Origin: an uncultured Alphaproteobacteria bacterium
GTDB taxonomy: Bacteria; Pseudomonadota; Alphaproteobacteria; Sphingomonadales; Sphingomonadaceae
Direction of reading: 5' to 3'
Assembly (NCBI GenBank): GCA_963838735.1
Contig: CAWISG010000004.1
Location: 83,928 to 147,927, forward strand
Length of the DNA stretch: 64,000 nt
Position numbers and translations under genes: made by a program. Below are positions 11,334 through 51,840 of this stretch, in pieces. How positions within the stretch are numbered: position 1 is the first letter of the stretch; each line of letters begins with the position of its first letter. The notes under the pieces were generated by a model, which saw only the letters and a program-made list of their open reading frames with translations, had not been told where the DNA came from and made no database searches.

Positions 11334-11444
11334 GAGGACATGAGACCGCTTGGCGATATGCGCGCGGCCTACCATCATAAGTGTTACCGCCACACACATA
11401 CCAGGCGTTGATAATGATCGGCTTCTTGGGACAGATCGGCACAA

Positions 11445-12488
11445 TCAAAAAGCGTGTTTCACACTGGAATGGTCTTCTACCGCGCGGATTTCCTGGTCGA
11501 TCTGGCCACGGGCTATAGCACCGCCGCATTCGGCGATTGCGTACTTGTCGTTTTCGTTAATTGTTCCGGCAAGCAGAAGTTCGCCGAGCAGCCCGACGCC
11601 TATTAACTGCCCCCCTCCCAGTACGAGTAGCATACCGAAAAGCAAAAGCGGGCGGTCGCCGATGGGGCCAAAACCCAGTGCCCAGAGGCAGCTTAGATAG
11701 CCGATGATTGCGCCGCCCAACAGCAATGCCACAAAGCCAGCCCCCCCGAAAAAATGGAGCGGTCGAGCTCCATATCGCGTGGTTAGCCATACGGTGAGCA
11801 AATCCAATGCGCCCTTGACCAGGCGCTTGCTGCCAAATTTTGATTCCCCAAAGCGCCGCGGCCGATGCTGAACCGCAATCTCGGCCACTTGAAACCCCCG
11901 TGCATGAAGCAGCGCCGGTACGAACCTATGAAGTTCGCCGTACAGATTCAGTTCGGCAAGTGTCTCGCAGCGATAAGCCTTGAACCCGCAATTGTGATCG
12001 TTGAGCTTCAACCCGAATACGCGGTTGACCGCTCCGTTGAATAGCTTGGATGGCAGCGTCTTGTCGACCGGGTCGTTTCGGACCTGCTTCCAGCCCGATA
12101 CCACATCGGCGCCTGCCTCGATTGCTTTGAAGAACTTGCCAAGTTCCGACGGGTTATCCTGCAGGTCGGCGTCCATGCTGAAAACGACATCCCCTCGCGC
12201 CGCTGTAAAACCGGCAGACAGAGCTGCCGACTTCCCGAAGTTGCGGCGGAAGCGCAGGAACGAGACCCGTGAATCGGCCTTTGCGAGTTCCCGCACGATT
12301 TCGCTTCCTTTGTCTTTGCTTCCGTCATCGACAAAGATCAGCTCGAAGCGTTTACCCATCGCCTCGCATTGCTCTACGATTTCGCTGTAAAGCATGTGGA
12401 GGCTTTCGCGCTCGTCAAAAAAAGGAATGACAAAACTGCATTCGGGTTCGAGGTCGAACGTGGCTTCTATGTTTTGTGGAAAAGACAT
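11445..12488 (-). CDS. family 2 glycosyltransferase, polyprenyl-phosphate sugar synthase type (GtrB/ArnC/DPM1-like)
   Basis: VIPFFDERESL...LIFVDDGSKDKGSE and a DAD motif (FSMDADLQD). Two C-terminal hydrophobic helices (FFGGAGFVALLLGGAIIGYL, LLLFGMLLVLGGGQLIGVGLLG). Confidence 0.9.
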   Translation of the reverse strand: MSFPQNIEATFDLEPECSFVIPFFDERESLHMLYSEIVEQCEAMGKRFELIFVDDGSKDKGSEIVRELAKADSRVSFLRFRRNFGKSAALSAGFTAARGDVVFSMDADLQDNPSELGKFFKAIEAGADVVSGWKQVRNDPVDKTLPSKLFNGAVNRVFGLKLNDHNCGFKAYRCETLAELNLYGELHRFVPALLHARGFQVAEIAVQHRPRRFGESKFGSKRLVKGALDLLTVWLTTRYGARPLHFFGGAGFVALLLGGAIIGYLSCLWALGFGPIGDRPLLLFGMLLVLGGGQLIGVGLLGELLLAGTINENDKYAIAECGGAIARGQIDQEIRAVEDHSSVKHAF

Positions 12489-12556
12489 ACGTACGGCTCC
12501 CGTTTAAAGTCCGCTTCGTCGATACGGTCCGGCAGGAAAGAAAACGTTAATTCTAA

Positions 12557-14491
12557 TTGGTAAGGTTTGGCCGGGTGATCCTGACTATCGCCGCAACGCT
12601 TCTGGTTGGGCTTCTTGCCATGGCTCCGGGCTTCGTACTCGTGCACGGAAGAGTGAATGTGCCGGGGCAATATGCGGCTGCGTCCTGTGTATCGCTAACA
12701 GTAGTGTTGCTTGCGACGGCGCTTTTGGGGATGGCTTGGGGAGCACTTACCGGAAGCTCCATTCCGGCCTGGTCAGTCGTTCTGATAGCTTCGGCAGCCC
12801 TCGTAACCTGCATCGCGCTAAGACATGGCAAGTTACGCCCGCCTCTAAAAATAGAGTGGGAGGGGTGCGTACTGGCGCTTGTAATGATCGCTTTCGGCCT
12901 GATTATTCACGCTCTTGCCGTGCAAAACACCGATGATGGTGCGCTGCTTATACATGCATGGTATAATGCAGACTGGTTCAAACACATGGGTCATGTCGCT
13001 AGTTTGCGAAATAGCGGTATTCCGGCGCGCGATATTTTCAACGCGATGGAGCCGCTGCATTATTACTGGCTCAGCTATCTTCTCCCCGCGGCCGGAAGTT
13101 CGCTCGGCGGACACAATTCCGCAGCTCTCATCACCGCTCAGGCAATAATCGTAGGGTTGCTTTGTACGACACTCTACGGAACCTTGCGTGCTACCTTGAT
13201 AACACGCGCGATAGCGTTGGTGGGTGCGATATTGGCGTTCCTGCTCTGCGTTCCGCTCGATGTCTGGTTCGCCATCCTCTCGATAGGTTTCGAAGGTTAC
13301 GTGAACGCGCCTTTGCAACCGAACTTTCCGTCGCTGCTGGCAACGGCACTTTACATACCGCAACATACCCTTGTCCTAACCCTGTTTCTAAGCTGGTTTC
13401 TGCTCGATCGACCAAGCCACTATGCTCCTCGCCTTCTGCGACTGTTTGCGCTTCTCTCGCTAGCCAGTGCGTTAACAGTATCGACGCTCCTGGGAGCCTG
13501 CGTACTCGCGGCTTACGGATTACTGCAATTGTGGCGCCGTGGCGTCAGCAGCGTTGTGGAAGTCGCCTTCATGGCGTTTCTTTCGGCAGCGTTGACGTTC
13601 GCTTTGGGCGTTATCAGCTTGGACAATCCCGCTTCTGCCATCGATAGCCCGCTGCTTACTGATGCTTCGGGATCGGCTTCGCTTGCGACACTAATGCTGC
13701 AACAGGTGTTGAAGGCGATATCGGAAGGCGGCCTCCCCTTGGCGCTGGCACTTGTGATCCTAGTACTATCGCGAAACGACCGTCGTACGTTAGTTGAAAC
13801 CGATGGCCGTAGACTGGCGATTGTGCTTTTGGCCATCGCATTGACAGCCCCCGCGTTGGCCGAAGCGCTGTTGAGCCCGCGTCTAGCTTTCGAACTAAGC
13901 ATCCGCGCCGCCTATCTTTCCGCCATTGCTGTCGCGATCGTCCTGACTTCGGTTTTCGACAAGGCCTGGAGAAACGGCCAAAAGCAGCGATCCCGTGCTC
14001 TGTGCGTGCTTGTCGTTTTAATCGTTATCGCTGCGCCGAGCTTTGTGGCTCTGACGGTTTGGCACGGGAACACAAGCGATAACTTTACTACTGAAGTACC
14101 CGGAGACGATCGGAAGGTTCTAGCGCTAATTTCGCAGCGTGCAGCGCCCAACGACCTGGTTTGGCAATACCCCGAGCCACCCTTTCTCGCCCGTCCCTCT
14201 GGGCGCGATGCATGGGTTGCGACCATCGCCGGAAGGGCTGTTACGGGATCGCTTCGCGCCACCGACTACAAGTTGACGGAGCCGCGTATCGCCGCTGCGC
14301 GCACATTCTATGGTGGTAAGTCTGACATGGAGATCGATGAAGACGTGTCGTGGATATACCTGTCCCGCACCCTGCATCCACTTACCTTCGAACGCCTCGT
14401 CGTTCGAATGCAATCGCAGCAGGGGTGGTCGCAGATTATGTGTTACCCGGATGCCTGCCTGTTCAAGCGCGAACGTAGCGATAGCCCGTAG
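12557..14491 (+). CDS. large polytopic membrane protein, probable GT-C-fold glycosyltransferase
   Basis: 644-aa ORF with 12 or more hydrophobic spans. Acidic first-loop motif AVQNTDDGALLIHAWYNADW. About 140-aa soluble C-terminal domain. The start is uncertain (TTG 12557 or GTG 12575). Confidence 0.6.
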   Translation: MVRFGRVILTIAATLLVGLLAMAPGFVLVHGRVNVPGQYAAASCVSLTVVLLATALLGMAWGALTGSSIPAWSVVLIASAALVTCIALRHGKLRPPLKIEWEGCVLALVMIAFGLIIHALAVQNTDDGALLIHAWYNADWFKHMGHVASLRNSGIPARDIFNAMEPLHYYWLSYLLPAAGSSLGGHNSAALITAQAIIVGLLCTTLYGTLRATLITRAIALVGAILAFLLCVPLDVWFAILSIGFEGYVNAPLQPNFPSLLATALYIPQHTLVLTLFLSWFLLDRPSHYAPRLLRLFALLSLASALTVSTLLGACVLAAYGLLQLWRRGVSSVVEVAFMAFLSAALTFALGVISLDNPASAIDSPLLTDASGSASLATLMLQQVLKAISEGGLPLALALVILVLSRNDRRTLVETDGRRLAIVLLAIALTAPALAEALLSPRLAFELSIRAAYLSAIAVAIVLTSVFDKAWRNGQKQRSRALCVLVVLIVIAAPSFVALTVWHGNTSDNFTTEVPGDDRKVLALISQRAAPNDLVWQYPEPPFLARPSGRDAWVATIAGRAVTGSLRATDYKLTEPRIAAARTFYGGKSDMEIDEDVSWIYLSRTLHPLTFERLVVRMQSQQGWSQIMCYPDACLFKRERSDSP

Positions 14492-15313
14492 GATAGCAAA
14501 CCGAAGCCGGCATCTCCGATAATAGTCATGGCGCGTGTAAGTATTGCTAGGACAGCTAGGTCGGCCAAGGGGGCAAGAGCGCCTGCGAGTAGCAGAAAAG
14601 CGCTTTCGCGTACGCCGATCCCACCAGGCGCAATGGGGACCACGAAGGATAATATCCATGCTGTCATGAAGGCGCCAACAATCAGTGGCGCTGACGACAT
14701 GGACAGGACATCCGCAGCAAGCCAGCAAACGCAAAGTGCAAGCCCTGCGAAAGCGCATAGCTGAAGGCCCGCAGCGCGTAAAAGCGGTTGGCGTCCGGCT
14801 ACCGCCGCAACGGAACCCAGAGCAATAGCCAACATACCCCCGTACGCGCCCCCCAAAACGACGATCGAGGCGCCGGCTATGGCCGCACAAACGATATGCA
14901 GGGCGGCCTCTGAAAATGTCGCACGTAGCATCATTGCGTGGGACCATCCCCGGCGCGCTCCGAGCACATGGCGTGAAGCATACTGAAGCACGGCACCGGG
15001 TACGTATTTTGCGACAACGCCCATACCATAAACCTGGACTGCGACAGACCATTCTACGCGAGCGTCGTCCTGCCGCGGTTATGGACCATGCCTGGGCAAG
15101 CAAGGCCAGCAGACCGACATAGATCGCCCCGGTTGCCAGGATGCCTGCGACACCTTCGGGTCCGACACCATCGAGGGCTTCTTTGAAATCGATCTTCGCA
15201 AAAGCCGCGACCAGATAGGCAATGGCCATGAGCATGAGGGCGTAGCCGCCATAATGCAGCAGTTTGTTCCAAGGTTCGGCCAGTGCTGGACGGGCCTTGG
15301 CCGTGTTAGCCAT
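14443..15313 (-). pseudogene. UPF0104 / MprF-type flippase-like membrane protein, split by a frameshift near 15055-15081
   Basis: The N-terminal 80 or so codons (MANTAKARPALAEPWNKLLHYGGYALMLMAIAYLV...AQAWSITAAG) are in the frame of ORF 14126..15313, which then turns into Arg-rich nonsense. The rest (..VVAKYVPGAVLQYASRHVL...IAPGGIGVRESAFLLL) is in the frame of ORF 14443..15024. Together they give about 290 aa, a normal length for this family. Confidence 0.7.
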
Positions 15314-15956
15314 GTCGGCTTAACAAGCTTGTATGATCGGGATAAGGCACGCAATATGTTCGCCCAAAGAAACGTCGCTCTACCAGTCCGCAGCCTGTAA
15401 TTCCCTGACGATAGCGCGCCCGGCCCGAGTTATCGAACAGGATGAGCCCTCCTGGCCTCAGTTTCTGCACTGCTTGTTGCAGACAGGCGGTTCGCTGCCG
15501 ACCATCGACGATGATAAGGTCGAAATCCCCCTCCACATCGTGAATGGCGTCGACATAATCACCGTTCGTCAGGTCATGCCTCTGAAGCGTAACCTGCGGC
15601 AGGGTAGCTACCCTCTTAGCCACCAACTCATGCCAGTCCGCATCGTGCTCAACAGAGAAGACTTGTCGCGACCGTCGAGCCAGCCAGATCGTGCTCGCGC
15701 CTGATCCCCATTCGAAGGCTCTAGCGTTAGGCCGTGCGCGCAAAAATTTTTCAGCCTCGATGGTTGCCGCCACGTTCCACCACGGCAGATCCAGCCGTAT
15801 CATTTCATCGGCATCGTAAATGGCAAACAGCGATGCGACCCAACGCCGCCAGCCATGAGCATGCGCGCTTCCTGAGCTATGACGCAGGCGGGAAAGCGGC
15901 TGATAATCGCCTAGATGCCGTACGGCCGTAAGATAGTTTGACTTAATGGTCTGCAA
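15306..15956 (-). CDS. class I SAM-dependent methyltransferase
   Basis: Motif I-like FEWGSGASTIWLA and DLIIVDG. TTG start. The stop overlaps the next start by 8 nt (ATGGCTAA). Confidence 0.7.
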   Translation of the reverse strand: MQTIKSNYLTAVRHLGDYQPLSRLRHSSGSAHAHGWRRWVASLFAIYDADEMIRLDLPWWNVAATIEAEKFLRARPNARAFEWGSGASTIWLARRSRQVFSVEHDADWHELVAKRVATLPQVTLQRHDLTNGDYVDAIHDVEGDFDLIIVDGRQRTACLQQAVQKLRPGGLILFDNSGRARYRQGITGCGLVERRFFGRTYCVPYPDHTSLLSRHG

Positions 15957-16064
15957 CGCCCGTCTCCTGTAAAATGGGCGCTACCAAGCAAATATTAACC
16001 AAAGAATAATTAACGTTGCGGCCAGACTAGCACTGTCACGACCAGGGCCACAGAGCCAAGATAG

Positions 16065-16154
16065 TGGCGGAGACGGTGGGATTCGAACCCACGAAAGAGT
16101 TGCCCCTTTACACACTTTCCAGGCGTGCGCCTTCGACCACTCGGCCACGTCTCC
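16065..16154 (-). tRNA. tRNA-Ser (anticodon GGA)
   Basis: 90-nt cloverleaf folded by hand. Acceptor GGAGACG/CGTCTCC, anticodon stem CACGC/GTGTG with loop CTGGAAA, long variable arm, T-arm GTGGG TTCGAAT CCCAC, encoded CCA. Confidence 0.95.
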
Positions 16155-16269: not shown

Positions 16270-16677
16270 ATGACCCGGACCTTCGGCATCGCCTGCACGG
16301 CCAATGAAATGGAAGCGATGGCGCGGCGCGCGCTGGCGTGTTTGCCAAGCGCGTTCCGCGAACAGATGCACGACATCGTGTTCGACGTGCAGGATTTCGC
16401 CACGCCGGAGGTGCTGGCCGACCTCGGCATCGACCACCCGTTTGCGCTGACCGGCCTTTACGAAGGCGAGCCGCTGACCGAACGCAGCATCGAGCATTCC
16501 GGGCGGATGCCGCCGCGCGTCTTCCTCTATCGCCGCCCCATCTTGGACGAATGGGCCGAACGCGGCGACGAGACGCTGGAGCATCTCGTGGCGCATGTCG
16601 TCATCCACGAGATCGGGCACCATTTCGGCCTGTCGGACGAAGACATGCACGCGCTGGAGGAACAGGTGACGGAATAA
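16270..16677 (+). CDS. small zincin-like metallopeptidase family protein
   Basis: HEIGHHFG zinc-binding motif near the C-terminus. Start chosen at MTRTFGIA. Confidence 0.8.
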   Translation: MTRTFGIACTANEMEAMARRALACLPSAFREQMHDIVFDVQDFATPEVLADLGIDHPFALTGLYEGEPLTERSIEHSGRMPPRVFLYRRPILDEWAERGDETLEHLVAHVVIHEIGHHFGLSDEDMHALEEQVTE

Positions 16678-16704
16678 GGGGACCGTTTGTCCCGCGCTCA
16701 ATAA

Positions 16705-16799
16705 CCGTTCGTCCTGAGCTTGTCGAAGGATCGTATTGTCATTTTAGCACGACCTGCAAAGCGAAGGGCAACCCCCTTCGACAAGCTCAGGGCGAACGG
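16705..16799. repeat. REP/MITE-like palindromic element (25-bp arms, 45-nt spacer)
   Basis: 16705-16729 CCGTTCGTCCTGAGCTTGTCGAAGG is the reverse complement of 16775-16799 with one mismatch (24/25). Confidence 0.8.
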
Positions 16800-16841
16800 A
16801 TCGGGTTTGATAACGCCGCAAATGCTGGCAGACAGGACGCC

Positions 16842-17867
16842 ATGAAACACGTTATCGCTGCCACCGCCGCACTCGTCCTCGCCACGTCCGCCACTGCGCA
16901 GGACGGCCCCGCCCCCAGCCCCAACACAATCGTCGCCGGTGCGTCGCAAGCCGAATGGATCGCCATCGCACCCGACGACCTGCTGGTCATGACCCTTGCC
17001 CCCGACCGCGACGGCAATGTGCGCCGGGTCGTCATCCAGCTCATGCCTGCGCCCTTCTCGCAAGGGTGGGTAAAGAACATCCGCACCCTCGCCCGCGCGC
17101 AATGGTACGACGGCACCAGCATTAACCGCGTGCAGGACAATTACGTCGTTCAGTGGGGCGATGTTGACGGCGAGGATGCGGCTAAGGCCAAACCTCTGCC
17201 GGAGGGGCTACAGGTTATGGGGGAAGACGAATATGCTCGAAGCGATGCCGTAAAACTTTTCGACGTGGTATGGGGGCAGTTGGGTTGGCGGTCGTCGAGT
17301 GAAATAGTACAATCTATTAGAACGCAGCTAGGTCCTCGCGCTGATTTTGACGATGCTTATAGCGCGACCGTTGGGTTTCATTCTGGTTTTCCGTTCGGAC
17401 AGTCGAGCGAAATACGGCACCAGTCAGACGCTATGTATATAAGAACGGCCGATGCTTGGCCCGTCCACTGCTACGGCATGGTGGGCGTCGGGCGTAGCTA
17501 TTCGCCTGACACTGGCAGTGGAGCCGAACTCTACACCGTGATTGGCCACGCACCGCGCCACCTCGACCGGAACACCGCGCTAGTCGGGCGAGTGATCGAG
17601 GGGATCGAGCATTTGTCCAGCCTGCCGCGCGGCACTGGCGAACTGGGCTTCTATGAAAGCGCCGACGAGCGCGTGACGATCGAGAGCATCCGCATGGGTA
17701 CCGAAGCCGAGGTCGCGCCGTTCGAATATCTTGACACCGAGAGCGCAACCTTCGCGCGCTATGCCGAAGCGCGTGCCAACCGTCGCGATCCGTTCTTCAT
17801 CGTACCAGCTGGCGGGGCGGATATCTGCAATATCCCGGTGCCGGTGCGGCGGGTCGATGCGCAGTAA
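16842..17867 (+). CDS. secreted cyclophilin-type peptidylprolyl isomerase
   Basis: Signal peptide MKHVIAATAALVLATSATAQ. Cyclophilin-like INRVQDNYVVQWGD and LVGRVIEGIEHL. Confidence 0.75.
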   Translation: MKHVIAATAALVLATSATAQDGPAPSPNTIVAGASQAEWIAIAPDDLLVMTLAPDRDGNVRRVVIQLMPAPFSQGWVKNIRTLARAQWYDGTSINRVQDNYVVQWGDVDGEDAAKAKPLPEGLQVMGEDEYARSDAVKLFDVVWGQLGWRSSSEIVQSIRTQLGPRADFDDAYSATVGFHSGFPFGQSSEIRHQSDAMYIRTADAWPVHCYGMVGVGRSYSPDTGSGAELYTVIGHAPRHLDRNTALVGRVIEGIEHLSSLPRGTGELGFYESADERVTIESIRMGTEAEVAPFEYLDTESATFARYAEARANRRDPFFIVPAGGADICNIPVPVRRVDAQ

Positions 17868-50514: not shown

Positions 50515-51840
50515 ATGAATTTCGAACCCACCGACCGGCAGACCCATTGGCGCGACCGCGTGCGCGATTTTATCGAAGCGAATGTCCGTCCCAATCTCGA
50601 CACCTACGCAAAACAGGACGCCGAAGGCGAACGCTGGAAGGTGTTGCAGGTGATCGAGGACCAGAAAGCCAAGGCCAGGGACGCCGGTATCTGGAACCTG
50701 TTCATGCCGCCGCGCGGGCAACTGAGCCATGTCGACGACACGTATGAGTTCGAAGGACCGGGCCTGACCAATTTGGAATACGCGCTGTGCGCCGAGGAAA
50801 TGGGCCGTATCGGCTGGGCCAGCGAAGTGTTCAACTGCTCCGCCCCTGATACCGGCAATATGGAAGTGTTCCACCGTTATGGCACGCGCGCGCAAAAGGA
50901 CGAATGGCTGACGCCGCTGATGAACGGCGAGATCCGCAGCGCCTTCCTGATGACCGAACCTTTCGTCGCCAGTTCCGACGCGACGAATATCGAAACCCGG
51001 ATCGAGCGCGATGGCGACGAATACGTCATCAACGGCCGCAAATGGTGGTCCAGCGGCTTGGGCGATCCGCGCTGCAAGGTCGCCATCGTGATGGGCAAGA
51101 CCGATCTGGAAGCCAACCGGCACCAGCAGCAATCGATGATCCTGATGCCGATCGAGGCGAAGGGCGTAAACATCATCCGGCACCTGCCCGTATTCGGTTA
51201 CGACGATGCACCGCACGGCCATATGGAAGTCGAGATGACCGACGTGCGGGTGCCTGCCACCAATCTGCTGCTGGGCGAAGGGCGCGGGTTCGAAATTGCG
51301 CAGGGCCGCCTCGGGCCGGGCCGCATCCATCACTGCATGCGTACCATTGGCGTTGCCGAGGAGGCGCTGGCGAAAATGTGCAGCCGCCTGCAATCGCGCG
51401 AGGCGTTCGGCAAACCGATCTACAAGCATTCGGTCTGGGAAGAACGCGTCGCGCGCGCCCGGATCGATATCGACATGACGCGCCTTCTGTGCCTGAAAGC
51501 CGCCGACATGATGGACAAGGTCGGCAACAAATCCGCCAAGCAGGAAATCGCCATGATCAAGGTGCAGGCGCCCAACATGGCGTTGAGCATTATCGATGAC
51601 GCAATCCAGGCACATGGCGGCGGCGGCGTGTCCAACGATTACGGTCTGGCGCAGGCTTACGCCCACCAGCGCACGCTGCGGCTGGCGGACGGCCCGGACG
51701 AGGTGCATGCCCGCTCCATCGCCCGAATCGAGTTTGCCCGCCATGCGCCCATACCGGACGACACGAAAAGTGCGATGGGCGAAGGCATGGCGGCGGGCTC
51801 GGGCGCGGGCGGTGCCGCCGCGAGCGCCGGTGCTGCGTAG
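50515..51840 (+). CDS. acyl-CoA dehydrogenase, ACAD10/11-type
   Basis: 441 aa: [70 protein letters not shown]. Confidence 0.9.

Follow-up and report, generated by a model that had tools for sequence, protein, structure and literature searches.

A candidate four-gene module for extracytoplasmic glycosylation in a low-G+C island beside tRNA-Ser(GGA) of an uncultured Sphingomonadaceae bacterium

What is encoded by the low-G+C block that abuts the 3′ end of a tRNA-Ser(GGA) gene in an uncultured Sphingomonadaceae bacterium, and how did the block come to lie there? It occupies positions 11340-16064 of a stretch of 64,000 nucleotides (nt) of contig CAWISG010000004.1 (assembly GCA_963838735.1, positions 83,928 to 147,927); this whole stretch is hereafter called the window. 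The original prediction, made from the letters alone, held that the four genes of the block follow the logic of the gtrABC serotype-conversion cassettes, with an MprF-type protein in place of the GtrA flippase and with a methyltransferase added, a reading that our analysis supports, the MprF idea at the level of the fold. From homology and structural models, we consider that the block is probably a self-contained four-gene module for extracytoplasmic glycosylation that was moved or acquired into a slot between a short-chain dehydrogenase/reductase (SDR) gene and the tRNA gene.

11445-12488, minus strand: GT2 polyprenyl-phosphate glycosyltransferase of the ArnC/GtrB/DPM1 type, 347 amino acids (aa), two C-terminal transmembrane (TM) helices; PF00535, E = 1.8e-31
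12557-14491, plus strand: predicted GT-C-fold membrane glycosyltransferase of an uncharacterised family, 644 aa from a TTG at 12557, about 14 TM helices
14443-15313, minus strand: membrane protein like the MprF flippase domain (UPF0104/PplT), 289 aa if intact, frame-shifted here
14443-14491: convergent 3′ overlap of the GT-C and flippase-like genes, 49 nt; D-A-C-L-F codons (plus) antisense to N-R-Q-A-S codons (minus)
15306-15956, minus strand: class I S-adenosylmethionine (SAM)-dependent methyltransferase (Methyltransf_24), 216 aa, soluble, no TM helix; PF13578, E = 1.6e-9
16065-16154, minus strand: tRNA-Ser(GGA) found by ARAGORN; Rfam RF00005, 59.5 bits; the variable slot ends on the right at its 3′ end

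The compositional anomaly that had been noticed from spot counts was borne out by every measure applied. The island has a G+C content of 56.3%, compared with 62.4% for the whole window, and this value is lower than that of all 593 sampled segments of the same length; the G+C profile falls from 0.63-0.68 to 0.52-0.58 across approximately 11.3-16.1 kb. The tetranucleotide distance of the island to the window average exceeds that of 238 of 238 sampled segments, and the G+C content at third codon positions (GC3) is 0.57-0.64 in the four island genes and 0.72-0.85 in the flanking genes. ARAGORN and Rfam both recovered the tRNA gene against which the block lies, which was the sole match of the Rfam scan, and the coordinates originally given for the GT2, 644-aa protein and methyltransferase genes proved to be correct.

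Is the same block found at this place in close relatives? A genome scan with the flanking SDR protein yielded two loci, L006 and L007, in which the SDR identity is 94% and 91%, respectively. Both share with the window an APH-SDR-P450-SDR flank with approximately 89% nucleotide identity up to 11338 or 11334; the synteny breaks at 11338/11339 and restarts exactly at 16065, and the tRNA-Ser(GGA) gene is present in L006 (100% identical) and in L007. The possibility raised in the original prediction that the block might be syntenic in all close relatives is thereby removed, because these two genomes hold another cargo of 6.5 kb in the slot.

L006 10864-17339 and L007 10860-17514: alternative cargo of the slot, approximately 6.5 kb of genes other than those of the window

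This cargo encodes a GT2 protein of 411-416 aa of the AglJ, dolichyl-phosphate-hexose or PpgS type with C-terminal TM helices, a GtrA-family protein (PF04138, 5e-17; L006 12190-12588), methyltransferases, a GT4 protein in L006 alone, and a 614-633-aa polytopic protein that has no Pfam match. Judged by its protein families, it looks like a canonical three-component system composed of the GT2, GtrA and polytopic proteins. The GT2 and polytopic end genes that are common to both cargoes lie in flank-like DNA of 62-67% G+C; the middle of the cargo (approximately 12155-15591 in L006) is unlike even between L006 and L007, and the G+C content over L006 12000-14500 is 51-60%. We considered homology between the GT-C family of the window and the 633-aa polytopic protein of the relatives; hhalign detected none, and we therefore take the cassettes to be analogous, not homologous. 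It therefore looks as if the window cassette has replaced another periplasmic glycosylation module at the SDR/tRNA-Ser slot, and this cassette swap is likely to have proceeded by recombination in the conserved flanks rather than by an integrase. Within the shared flank, the P450 gene of L006 (8704-9960) aligns to the window protein in four pieces in different frames; this metagenome-assembled genome thus carries indel errors or pseudogenes, a point that bears on how frameshifts in such assemblies are judged.

Where else does the unit occur? Nine further loci (L001, L002/L003, L004, L005, L023, L024, L026, L027 and L028) carry the GT-C gene at 35% to approximately 100% identity, and in all nine the gene order is GT2 (minus), GT-C (plus), UPF0104 (minus) and methyltransferase (minus), with the methyltransferase stop overlapping the UPF0104 start in most of them. 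The convergent overlap, compared in the window and in all of these loci except L024, is 46-52 nt long and has the same motifs in nine of nine cases (the window, L001, L002, L004, L005, L023, L026, L027 and L028), such that the single stretch GAYGCNTGCCTGTTC is read as the conserved DACLF motif from one strand and as the conserved NRQAS motif from the other. In L024 (2159-4348), the GT-C gene is without its usual stop, and is called as 729 aa, its frame running on across the overlap; the other strand has an intact, though uncalled, UPF0104 gene.

Seven of these loci (L001, L002, L004, L005, L026, L027 and L028) have enough flanking DNA for their surroundings to be described. All seven contain a stand-alone T2SSE ATPase gene (484-514 aa) at approximately 0.2-1.8 kb from the methyltransferase end; six have an EamA/DMT gene adjoining the cassette on either side, and five have NAD_binding_10 and HD genes downstream. 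No tRNA lies near the cassette at the T2SSE-site loci, and a search across the window found that it codes for no EamA, T2SSE or GlmS homologue. The location next to T2SSE looks like a stable native chromosomal site, and the cassette, far from being confined to this islet, is a module conserved on the chromosomes of Erythrobacteraceae-like genomes. Its G+C content differs from that of its flanks by no more than 4 points in all four loci measured (L001, L002, L004 and L005), and both G+C and GC3 are at or above those of the flanks in L001, L002 and L004. Because the cassettes measured elsewhere match their flanks, the low G+C content is a peculiarity of the copy in the window. What lies at the new place with atypical composition is the four-gene core alone; this marks the bounds of the functional unit and speaks for transfer or translocation, so that the window copy is a core that was either displaced or acquired horizontally. 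Among the cassettes with context, that of L024, from a stromatolite metagenome, is the nearest, with 65-83% protein identity and 71.7% nucleotide identity colinear with window positions 11480-16016. The L024 contig has a G+C content of approximately 57% and a GC3 of 0.65, close to those of the island, and a lower-G+C relative is the likely source of the core if it was acquired.

Could the block instead be native, an ancestral surface-glycan locus whose low G+C content reflects membrane-protein composition or a local mutation bias, with the relatives having lost or replaced it? We regard this as very unlikely. Such an origin would accord with the lack of an integrase, a clear att repeat, or a plasmid or phage copy (see below), and the slot is variable in each relative examined, so that the direction of change is deduced rather than seen. 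An intrinsically low G+C content of these membrane-protein genes was nevertheless ruled out, because the orthologous cassettes match their own flanks, those of L001, L002 and L004 at least equalling them in G+C and GC3. In addition, GC3, which is largely free of amino-acid constraint, falls from approximately 0.8 to approximately 0.6; in every one of the seven loci with sufficient flanking DNA, the cassette has T2SSE as a neighbour, at a different chromosomal site; and the shared GT2 and polytopic genes in the cargo of the relatives have a flank-like composition.

What, then, do the four proteins do? The GT2 protein had been compared with GtrB, ArnC and DPM1 and grouped with the polyprenyl-phosphate enzymes, and this placement holds. 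Its PF00535 match (the GT-A catalytic domain) spans residues 18-177; the NCBIfam models ArnC (3.2e-49; residues 17-305, model positions 8-293 of 316) and PgfS (1.9e-42) match it; and among PDB sequences it aligns end to end, the juxtamembrane region and the two C-terminal TM helices included, with ArnC (residues 16-305 with 9-295, 8e-48) and with residues 25-311 of GtrB sll0501 (1.6e-28), and in the catalytic domain only (residues 16-223) with DPMS (approximately 1e-18). By sequence, it is a member of the polyprenyl-phosphate sugar synthase family and not an ArnC orthologue: it scores 167.7 bits against an ArnC equivalog cut-off of 529, and the sugar is therefore not predictable.

The 644-aa protein, for which public gene calls begin six codons later (638 aa), has no Pfam or NCBIfam match even at E<=10; some homologues have weak precomputed matches to PF10060 (DUF2298). 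A word-indexed search of 5.8 billion proteins gave 44 relatives, all of approximately 630-650 aa, the named ones from Erythrobacter, Parerythrobacter and Novosphingobium, and a profile search of 1.84 billion representatives gave 248 proteins at E<=1e-3, 71 of them at E<=1e-30. An AlphaFold2 model built on the alignment of the relatives reached a pLDDT of 92.7 and a pTM of 0.94. When this model was compared with the PDB by Foldseek, GT-C enzymes made up 10 of the first 11 matches (all but rank 9) and also rank 23, with probabilities of 0.95-1.00: AftA (3.4e-7, TM-score approximately 0.48), DPY19, yeast and human STT3, PglB, Pmt1/2 and Pmt4. Transporters interspersed among these ranks had probabilities of <=0.2 and TM-scores near 0.1. 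Because the family profile found nothing among PDB sequences even at E<=10, the kinship with GT-C enzymes was seen by fold comparison only. As modelled, the protein has a GT-C fold with a soluble C-terminal domain, in line with what had been proposed for it.

The same proposal had placed a DD pair in the first loop, and this detail did not survive, in that D126 and D127 are not conserved and the invariant aspartates D139 and D159 belong to a loop after the fourth TM helix. By charge distribution, residues 89-100, 405-411 and 466-480 form cytoplasmic loops, and, by the positive-inside rule, both the loop at 122-171 and the C-terminal domain (505-644) would face the periplasm. It is in the 122-171 loop that most invariant positions cluster (N137, A138, D139, F141, K142, H143, H146, G154, P156, A157 and D159, together with an L-x-YYWL-x-Y stretch); C629 and C634 in the C-terminal domain are also invariant. 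These proteins form a small and taxonomically narrow family with the signature NAD[WF]FKH and without a Pfam, NCBIfam or solved-structure relative by sequence.

Might the 644-aa protein be another polytopic envelope enzyme or a transporter, for example one resembling a polymerase or ligase, that merely shares a helical bundle with GT-C enzymes? The absence of any sequence link to a solved GT-C structure in the profile search (E<=10), the lack of a Pfam or NCBIfam family and TM-scores below 0.5 would be compatible with that idea. We find it most improbable, given the clean separation of GT-C enzymes from transporters in the Foldseek ranking, the fact that the protein, as GT-C enzymes do, carries invariant histidine and acidic residues in a loop predicted to be periplasmic, and the position of the gene, which is always divergent from a gene for a polyprenyl-phosphate sugar synthase, the maker of GT-C donors. 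Furthermore, UniRef names the Erythrobacter litoralis homologue as bearing an RgtA/B/C/D-like glycosyltransferase domain.

The third gene had been described as that of a UPF0104 protein related to the MprF flippase domain; the relationship stands at the level of the fold, but in the window the gene is not one intact open reading frame. Alignment with homologues shows that the gene is split over two frames, with residues 1-83 at 15313-15065 and residues 88-288 at 15051-14449. The independent short-read contig L023 matches the window over 6483 nt at 99.43% identity, SDR-cassette-tRNA order included, and carries an intact gene of 289 aa; the only gap between the two sequences is at approximately 15062, where the window has a 1-nt insertion beside a substitution. 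The extra base lies outside any homopolymer run. The frameshift may mark a strain-specific pseudogene, in which case the module may be crippled, or an assembly error. The family has many members with precomputed PF03706 matches, and the window protein matches TIGR00374 with E = 0.0046. An AlphaFold2 model was made of a public homologue that shares 99% identity with the intact protein of L023; it had a pLDDT of 91.2, and its top five Foldseek matches were all MprF structures (probability 1.00, TMq 0.58-0.63; the next match, 0.21) from P. aeruginosa and R. etli; 7DUW, also among the MprF matches, we take to be from R. tropici. The family profile gave no meaningful relative among PDB sequences, so that only the fold comparison linked it to MprF. 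On this model, the protein has the fold of the MprF flippase domain.

The methyltransferase was recovered as originally described, both in its coordinates and in the 8 nt (ATGGCTAA) that its stop shares with the start of the flippase-like gene, and the PF13578 match agrees with its assignment as a SAM methyltransferase. It also has weak matches to structures of O-methyltransferase family 3.

A sister group of proteins of 650-710 aa, which keep the F-N-A-D-F-F-K-H and LHYYWL motifs, shows which partners recur around such GT-C proteins. In L030 (7926-13104), the GT-C gene is followed by genes for a 343-aa GT2 protein that is 44% identical to that of the window and a methyltransferase of another family, and there is also a weak Polysacc_synt (Wzx-like) protein, so that the same four functions are provided by other parts. 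L032 has GT2, GT-C and methyltransferase genes. In L031 (5931-11879), the sister GT-C gene is accompanied by genes for an LpxL-like acyltransferase, a PAP2 phosphatase, a polysaccharide deacetylase and a GNAT protein, a context reminiscent of lipid A amino-sugar modification; by analogy, it suggests glycolipid acceptors. Thus, the methyltransferase is a recurrent partner and the flippase type varies, and a membrane glycolipid is a plausible acceptor for the GT-C system.

How might the four proteins work together? [quoted passage not shown] Second, the cytoplasmic Methyltransf_24 protein, whose gene appears to be translationally coupled to the flippase-like gene, may methylate the sugar on its lipid carrier or on the nucleotide precursor. 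Such steps have parallels, in that ArnD and LgmC act on lipid-linked sugars and AglP methylates a dolichol-phosphate-linked glycan. Third, the protein with the MprF fold would flip the lipid-linked sugar to the periplasmic leaflet in the place of GtrA. Fourth, the GT-C protein, whose fold and topology were deduced above, would use its NADWFKH...D loop and C-terminal domain in handing the sugar on to an acceptor in the envelope, for which a glycolipid such as the glycosphingolipid of the group, a polysaccharide or a protein are candidates. The host bacterial group is poor in lipopolysaccharide, and its outer-membrane glycolipid would be a glycosphingolipid. We speculate, in what is the boldest form of this idea and one we hold to be quite unlikely in full, that a methylated sugar on polyprenyl phosphate is flipped by the MprF-type protein and transferred by the founding member of a new GT-C family onto an outer-membrane glycosphingolipid. 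If so, the UPF0104 protein would be the first with a polyprenyl-phosphate-sugar substrate, and the swap with a GtrA-type cassette at the tRNA-Ser slot would be a natural serotype-like switch.

An alternative is that the four genes form two separate pairs, the GT2 and GT-C proteins working with another flippase, such as an EamA/DMT protein, and the methyltransferase and MprF-like protein serving a different methylated lipid. The UPF0104 systems that have been characterised or proposed (MprF, GpgF and HexF) act on phospholipids or glycolipids and not on polyprenyl carriers; the methyltransferase and UPF0104 genes form a translationally coupled pair of their own; six of the seven loci whose flanks are long enough have, next to the cassette, an EamA gene, which belongs to the ArnE/F superfamily; and L032 combines GT2, GT-C and methyltransferase genes without a UPF0104 gene. 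Against this arrangement, all four genes moved together to the tRNA-Ser slot without EamA, and the conserved 3′ overlap, in which both strands code, ties the GT-C gene physically to the UPF0104 gene. Moreover, in L032 it is GT2 and GT-C, and not a UPF0104 gene, that the methyltransferase gene accompanies, and L030 joins the GT-C, GT2 and methyltransferase functions to another flippase-type protein. On balance, two separate pairs seem unlikely, and we prefer the single four-gene module.

Several observations weigh against that module and its acquisition. The flippase-like gene is frame-shifted in this very genome, and the repaired protein scores 32.5 bits against PF03706, below the cut-off of 33.4. 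We know of no UPF0104 protein that has been shown by experiment to flip a polyprenyl-phosphate sugar. No UPF0104 gene was detected in L032, and so the flippase-like protein may not be obligatory. The TM-scores of the 644-aa protein to known GT-C enzymes are 0.24-0.49, and its acidic invariants D139 (in the motif N-A-D-W-F-K-H) and D159 sit after the fourth TM helix rather than the first, in a loop that is a candidate counterpart of the canonical first external loop (EL1). As for the route of acquisition, no repeat of the tRNA 3′ end was found, and tblastn with the GT-C protein gave no match in 72,556 plasmid and 50,697 phage records. The absence of such a repeat and of an integrase had already been noted, and we likewise saw no integrase in or beside the block in the list of open reading frames or with Pfam. 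Thus, among the features of tRNA-associated islands, the block shows the compositional shift, the adjacency to a tRNA gene and the absence from close relatives, and lacks the integrase and the direct repeats.

The edges of the block and the intergenic regions within it can be delimited as follows.

11339-11444: left junction, unique sequence from the SDR stop (11333) to the GT2 stop; L006/L007 homology ends at 11338 or 11334
12489-12574: divergent intergenic region between the GT2 and GT-C genes, read from the sequence; presumed shared promoter with a putative regulatory role
15957-16016: region upstream of the methyltransferase gene, which travels with the cassette (colinear homology with L024); putative promoter
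16017-16064: right junction, 48 nt of unique sequence from the cassette to the tRNA 3′ end, in neither L024 nor L006/L007

On the left, homology with the L024 cassette begins only at 11480, inside the left end of the GT2 gene, whose stop is at 11445. At approximately 11378-11408, the left junction has a weak and imperfect 32-nt likeness to the part of tRNA-Ser that comprises the anticodon and variable arm, with a local alignment score of 14 that is equalled by 0.15% of shuffles and 0.26% of other segments. This stretch could be a relic, and there is no classical att site; a duplication of the tRNA 3′ end was ruled out, because the likeness is to an internal part of the tRNA and is degenerate. 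Elsewhere in the window, only the region at approximately 50546-50711 resembles tRNA-Ser locally as strongly as the left junction does, or more so (score 16). A scan for promoters and terminators gave nothing above shuffles and, at 12489-12574, no promoter-like match above chance.

Beyond the tRNA gene, between the Zincin_1 and peptidyl-prolyl isomerase (PPIase) genes, there is an intergenic palindrome at 16705-16799, whose 25-nt arms are 96% complementary and enclose a 45-nt spacer; it has no second copy in the window. The 509-aa open reading frame at 16338-17867 is a composite whose N-terminal part crosses the Zincin_1 gene and the palindrome; the real gene there is probably that of a cyclophilin-type PPIase with a signal peptide, starting near 16843 (MKHVIAATAALVLATSATAQ...).

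How does the module relate to known systems? It shares with the gtrABC cassettes of Shigella and Salmonella a GtrB-like GT2 protein, a flippase, a putative periplasmic GT-C transfer, and a compact, tRNA-adjacent locus that varies between close relatives. In contrast to gtrABC, none of the four island genes matches the GtrA family PF04138, a UPF0104 protein with the MprF fold being present instead; the island adds a methyltransferase, its GT-C protein belongs to another, unclassified family, and it has no prophage or integrase. To our knowledge, the host group, unlike the hosts of gtrABC, is not known for O-antigen. The ArnC/ArnT/ArnEF pathway of lipid A aminoarabinose addition, together with the Lgm, Flm and Rgt systems, offers the best characterised GT2 homologue (ArnC, 8e-48) and a scheme in which a lipid-linked sugar is modified cytoplasmically (by ArnD), flipped and transferred by a GT-C enzyme. 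It differs in that the island GT-C protein has no detectable sequence similarity to ArnT, the candidate flippase is not of the SMR/DMT type, and the modifier is a methyltransferase rather than a deformylase or deacetylase. AftA, the mycobacterial arabinofuranosyltransferase (PDB 8IF8), is the best structural match, a GT-C membrane domain being followed in both by a C-terminal periplasmic domain; its identity is 13-14%, with no match at the sequence level, and its donor, decaprenyl-phosphate arabinose, comes from a different pathway.

The interchangeability of flippases has been documented, in that GtrA, SMR and MATE proteins serve different three-component systems (PMC11127046). In the GT136 pentofuranose system of Citrobacter youngae (Kelly et al. 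2024, PMC11127046), the flippase is a MATE protein, where Gtr and mycobacterial systems use SMR proteins, and that system also illustrates that further new GT-C families keep emerging in such a role; in it, the donor is made by a phosphoribosyltransferase from phosphoribosyl pyrophosphate rather than by a GT2 protein, and the GT-C family is another one. A widespread prediction makes UPF0104 proteins flippases of lipids (bioRxiv 10.1101/2022.03.11.483950; PMC12713373), or of lipids or dolichol-linked sugars (PMC5898192; PMC12713373). The gpgSDF and hexSDF operons (PMC12713373) likewise combine a stand-alone UPF0104 'F' protein with enzymes that make and modify a sugar-bearing membrane lipid, of which it is the proposed flippase; there, a GT4 protein acts on phosphatidylglycerol or diacylglycerol and there is no GT-C step. 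The closest precedent is an archaeal neighbourhood of an AglD-type GT2 protein, a UPF0104 protein (arCOG00899) and the PMT/STT3-like arCOG00563 (Makarova et al. 2015, PMC5898192), which brings together the same three protein classes and is a direct, although only predicted, precedent for the flipping of lipid-linked sugars by an MprF-type protein. It differs in being archaeal, in that the flippase is often fused to the GT2 protein, and in having no described methyltransferase. The original suggestion that the four-part combination is undescribed therefore holds in that we found no such combination in the literature, but the neighbourhood predicted in 2015 anticipates part of it. In the literature on UPF0104, DUF2298 and Erythrobacter glycosphingolipid glycosyltransferases, we found no description of the bacterial cassette or of the GT-C family.

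What is new is the uncharacterised GT-C family, the putative MprF-type flippase in a bacterial system and the integral methyltransferase; the general mechanism, in which a lipid-linked donor, a flippase and a GT-C enzyme act together, is well established, and the advance is accordingly incremental. The cassette nevertheless provides a clean genetic setting for asking whether stand-alone UPF0104/PplT proteins flip polyprenyl-phosphate sugars, as has been predicted since 2015, and the GtrA-type system in the same slot of the sister genomes amounts to a natural experiment in functional equivalence. For this group of bacteria, whose surface glycoconjugates have been little studied, the locus points to variation of the envelope glycan by cassette exchange.

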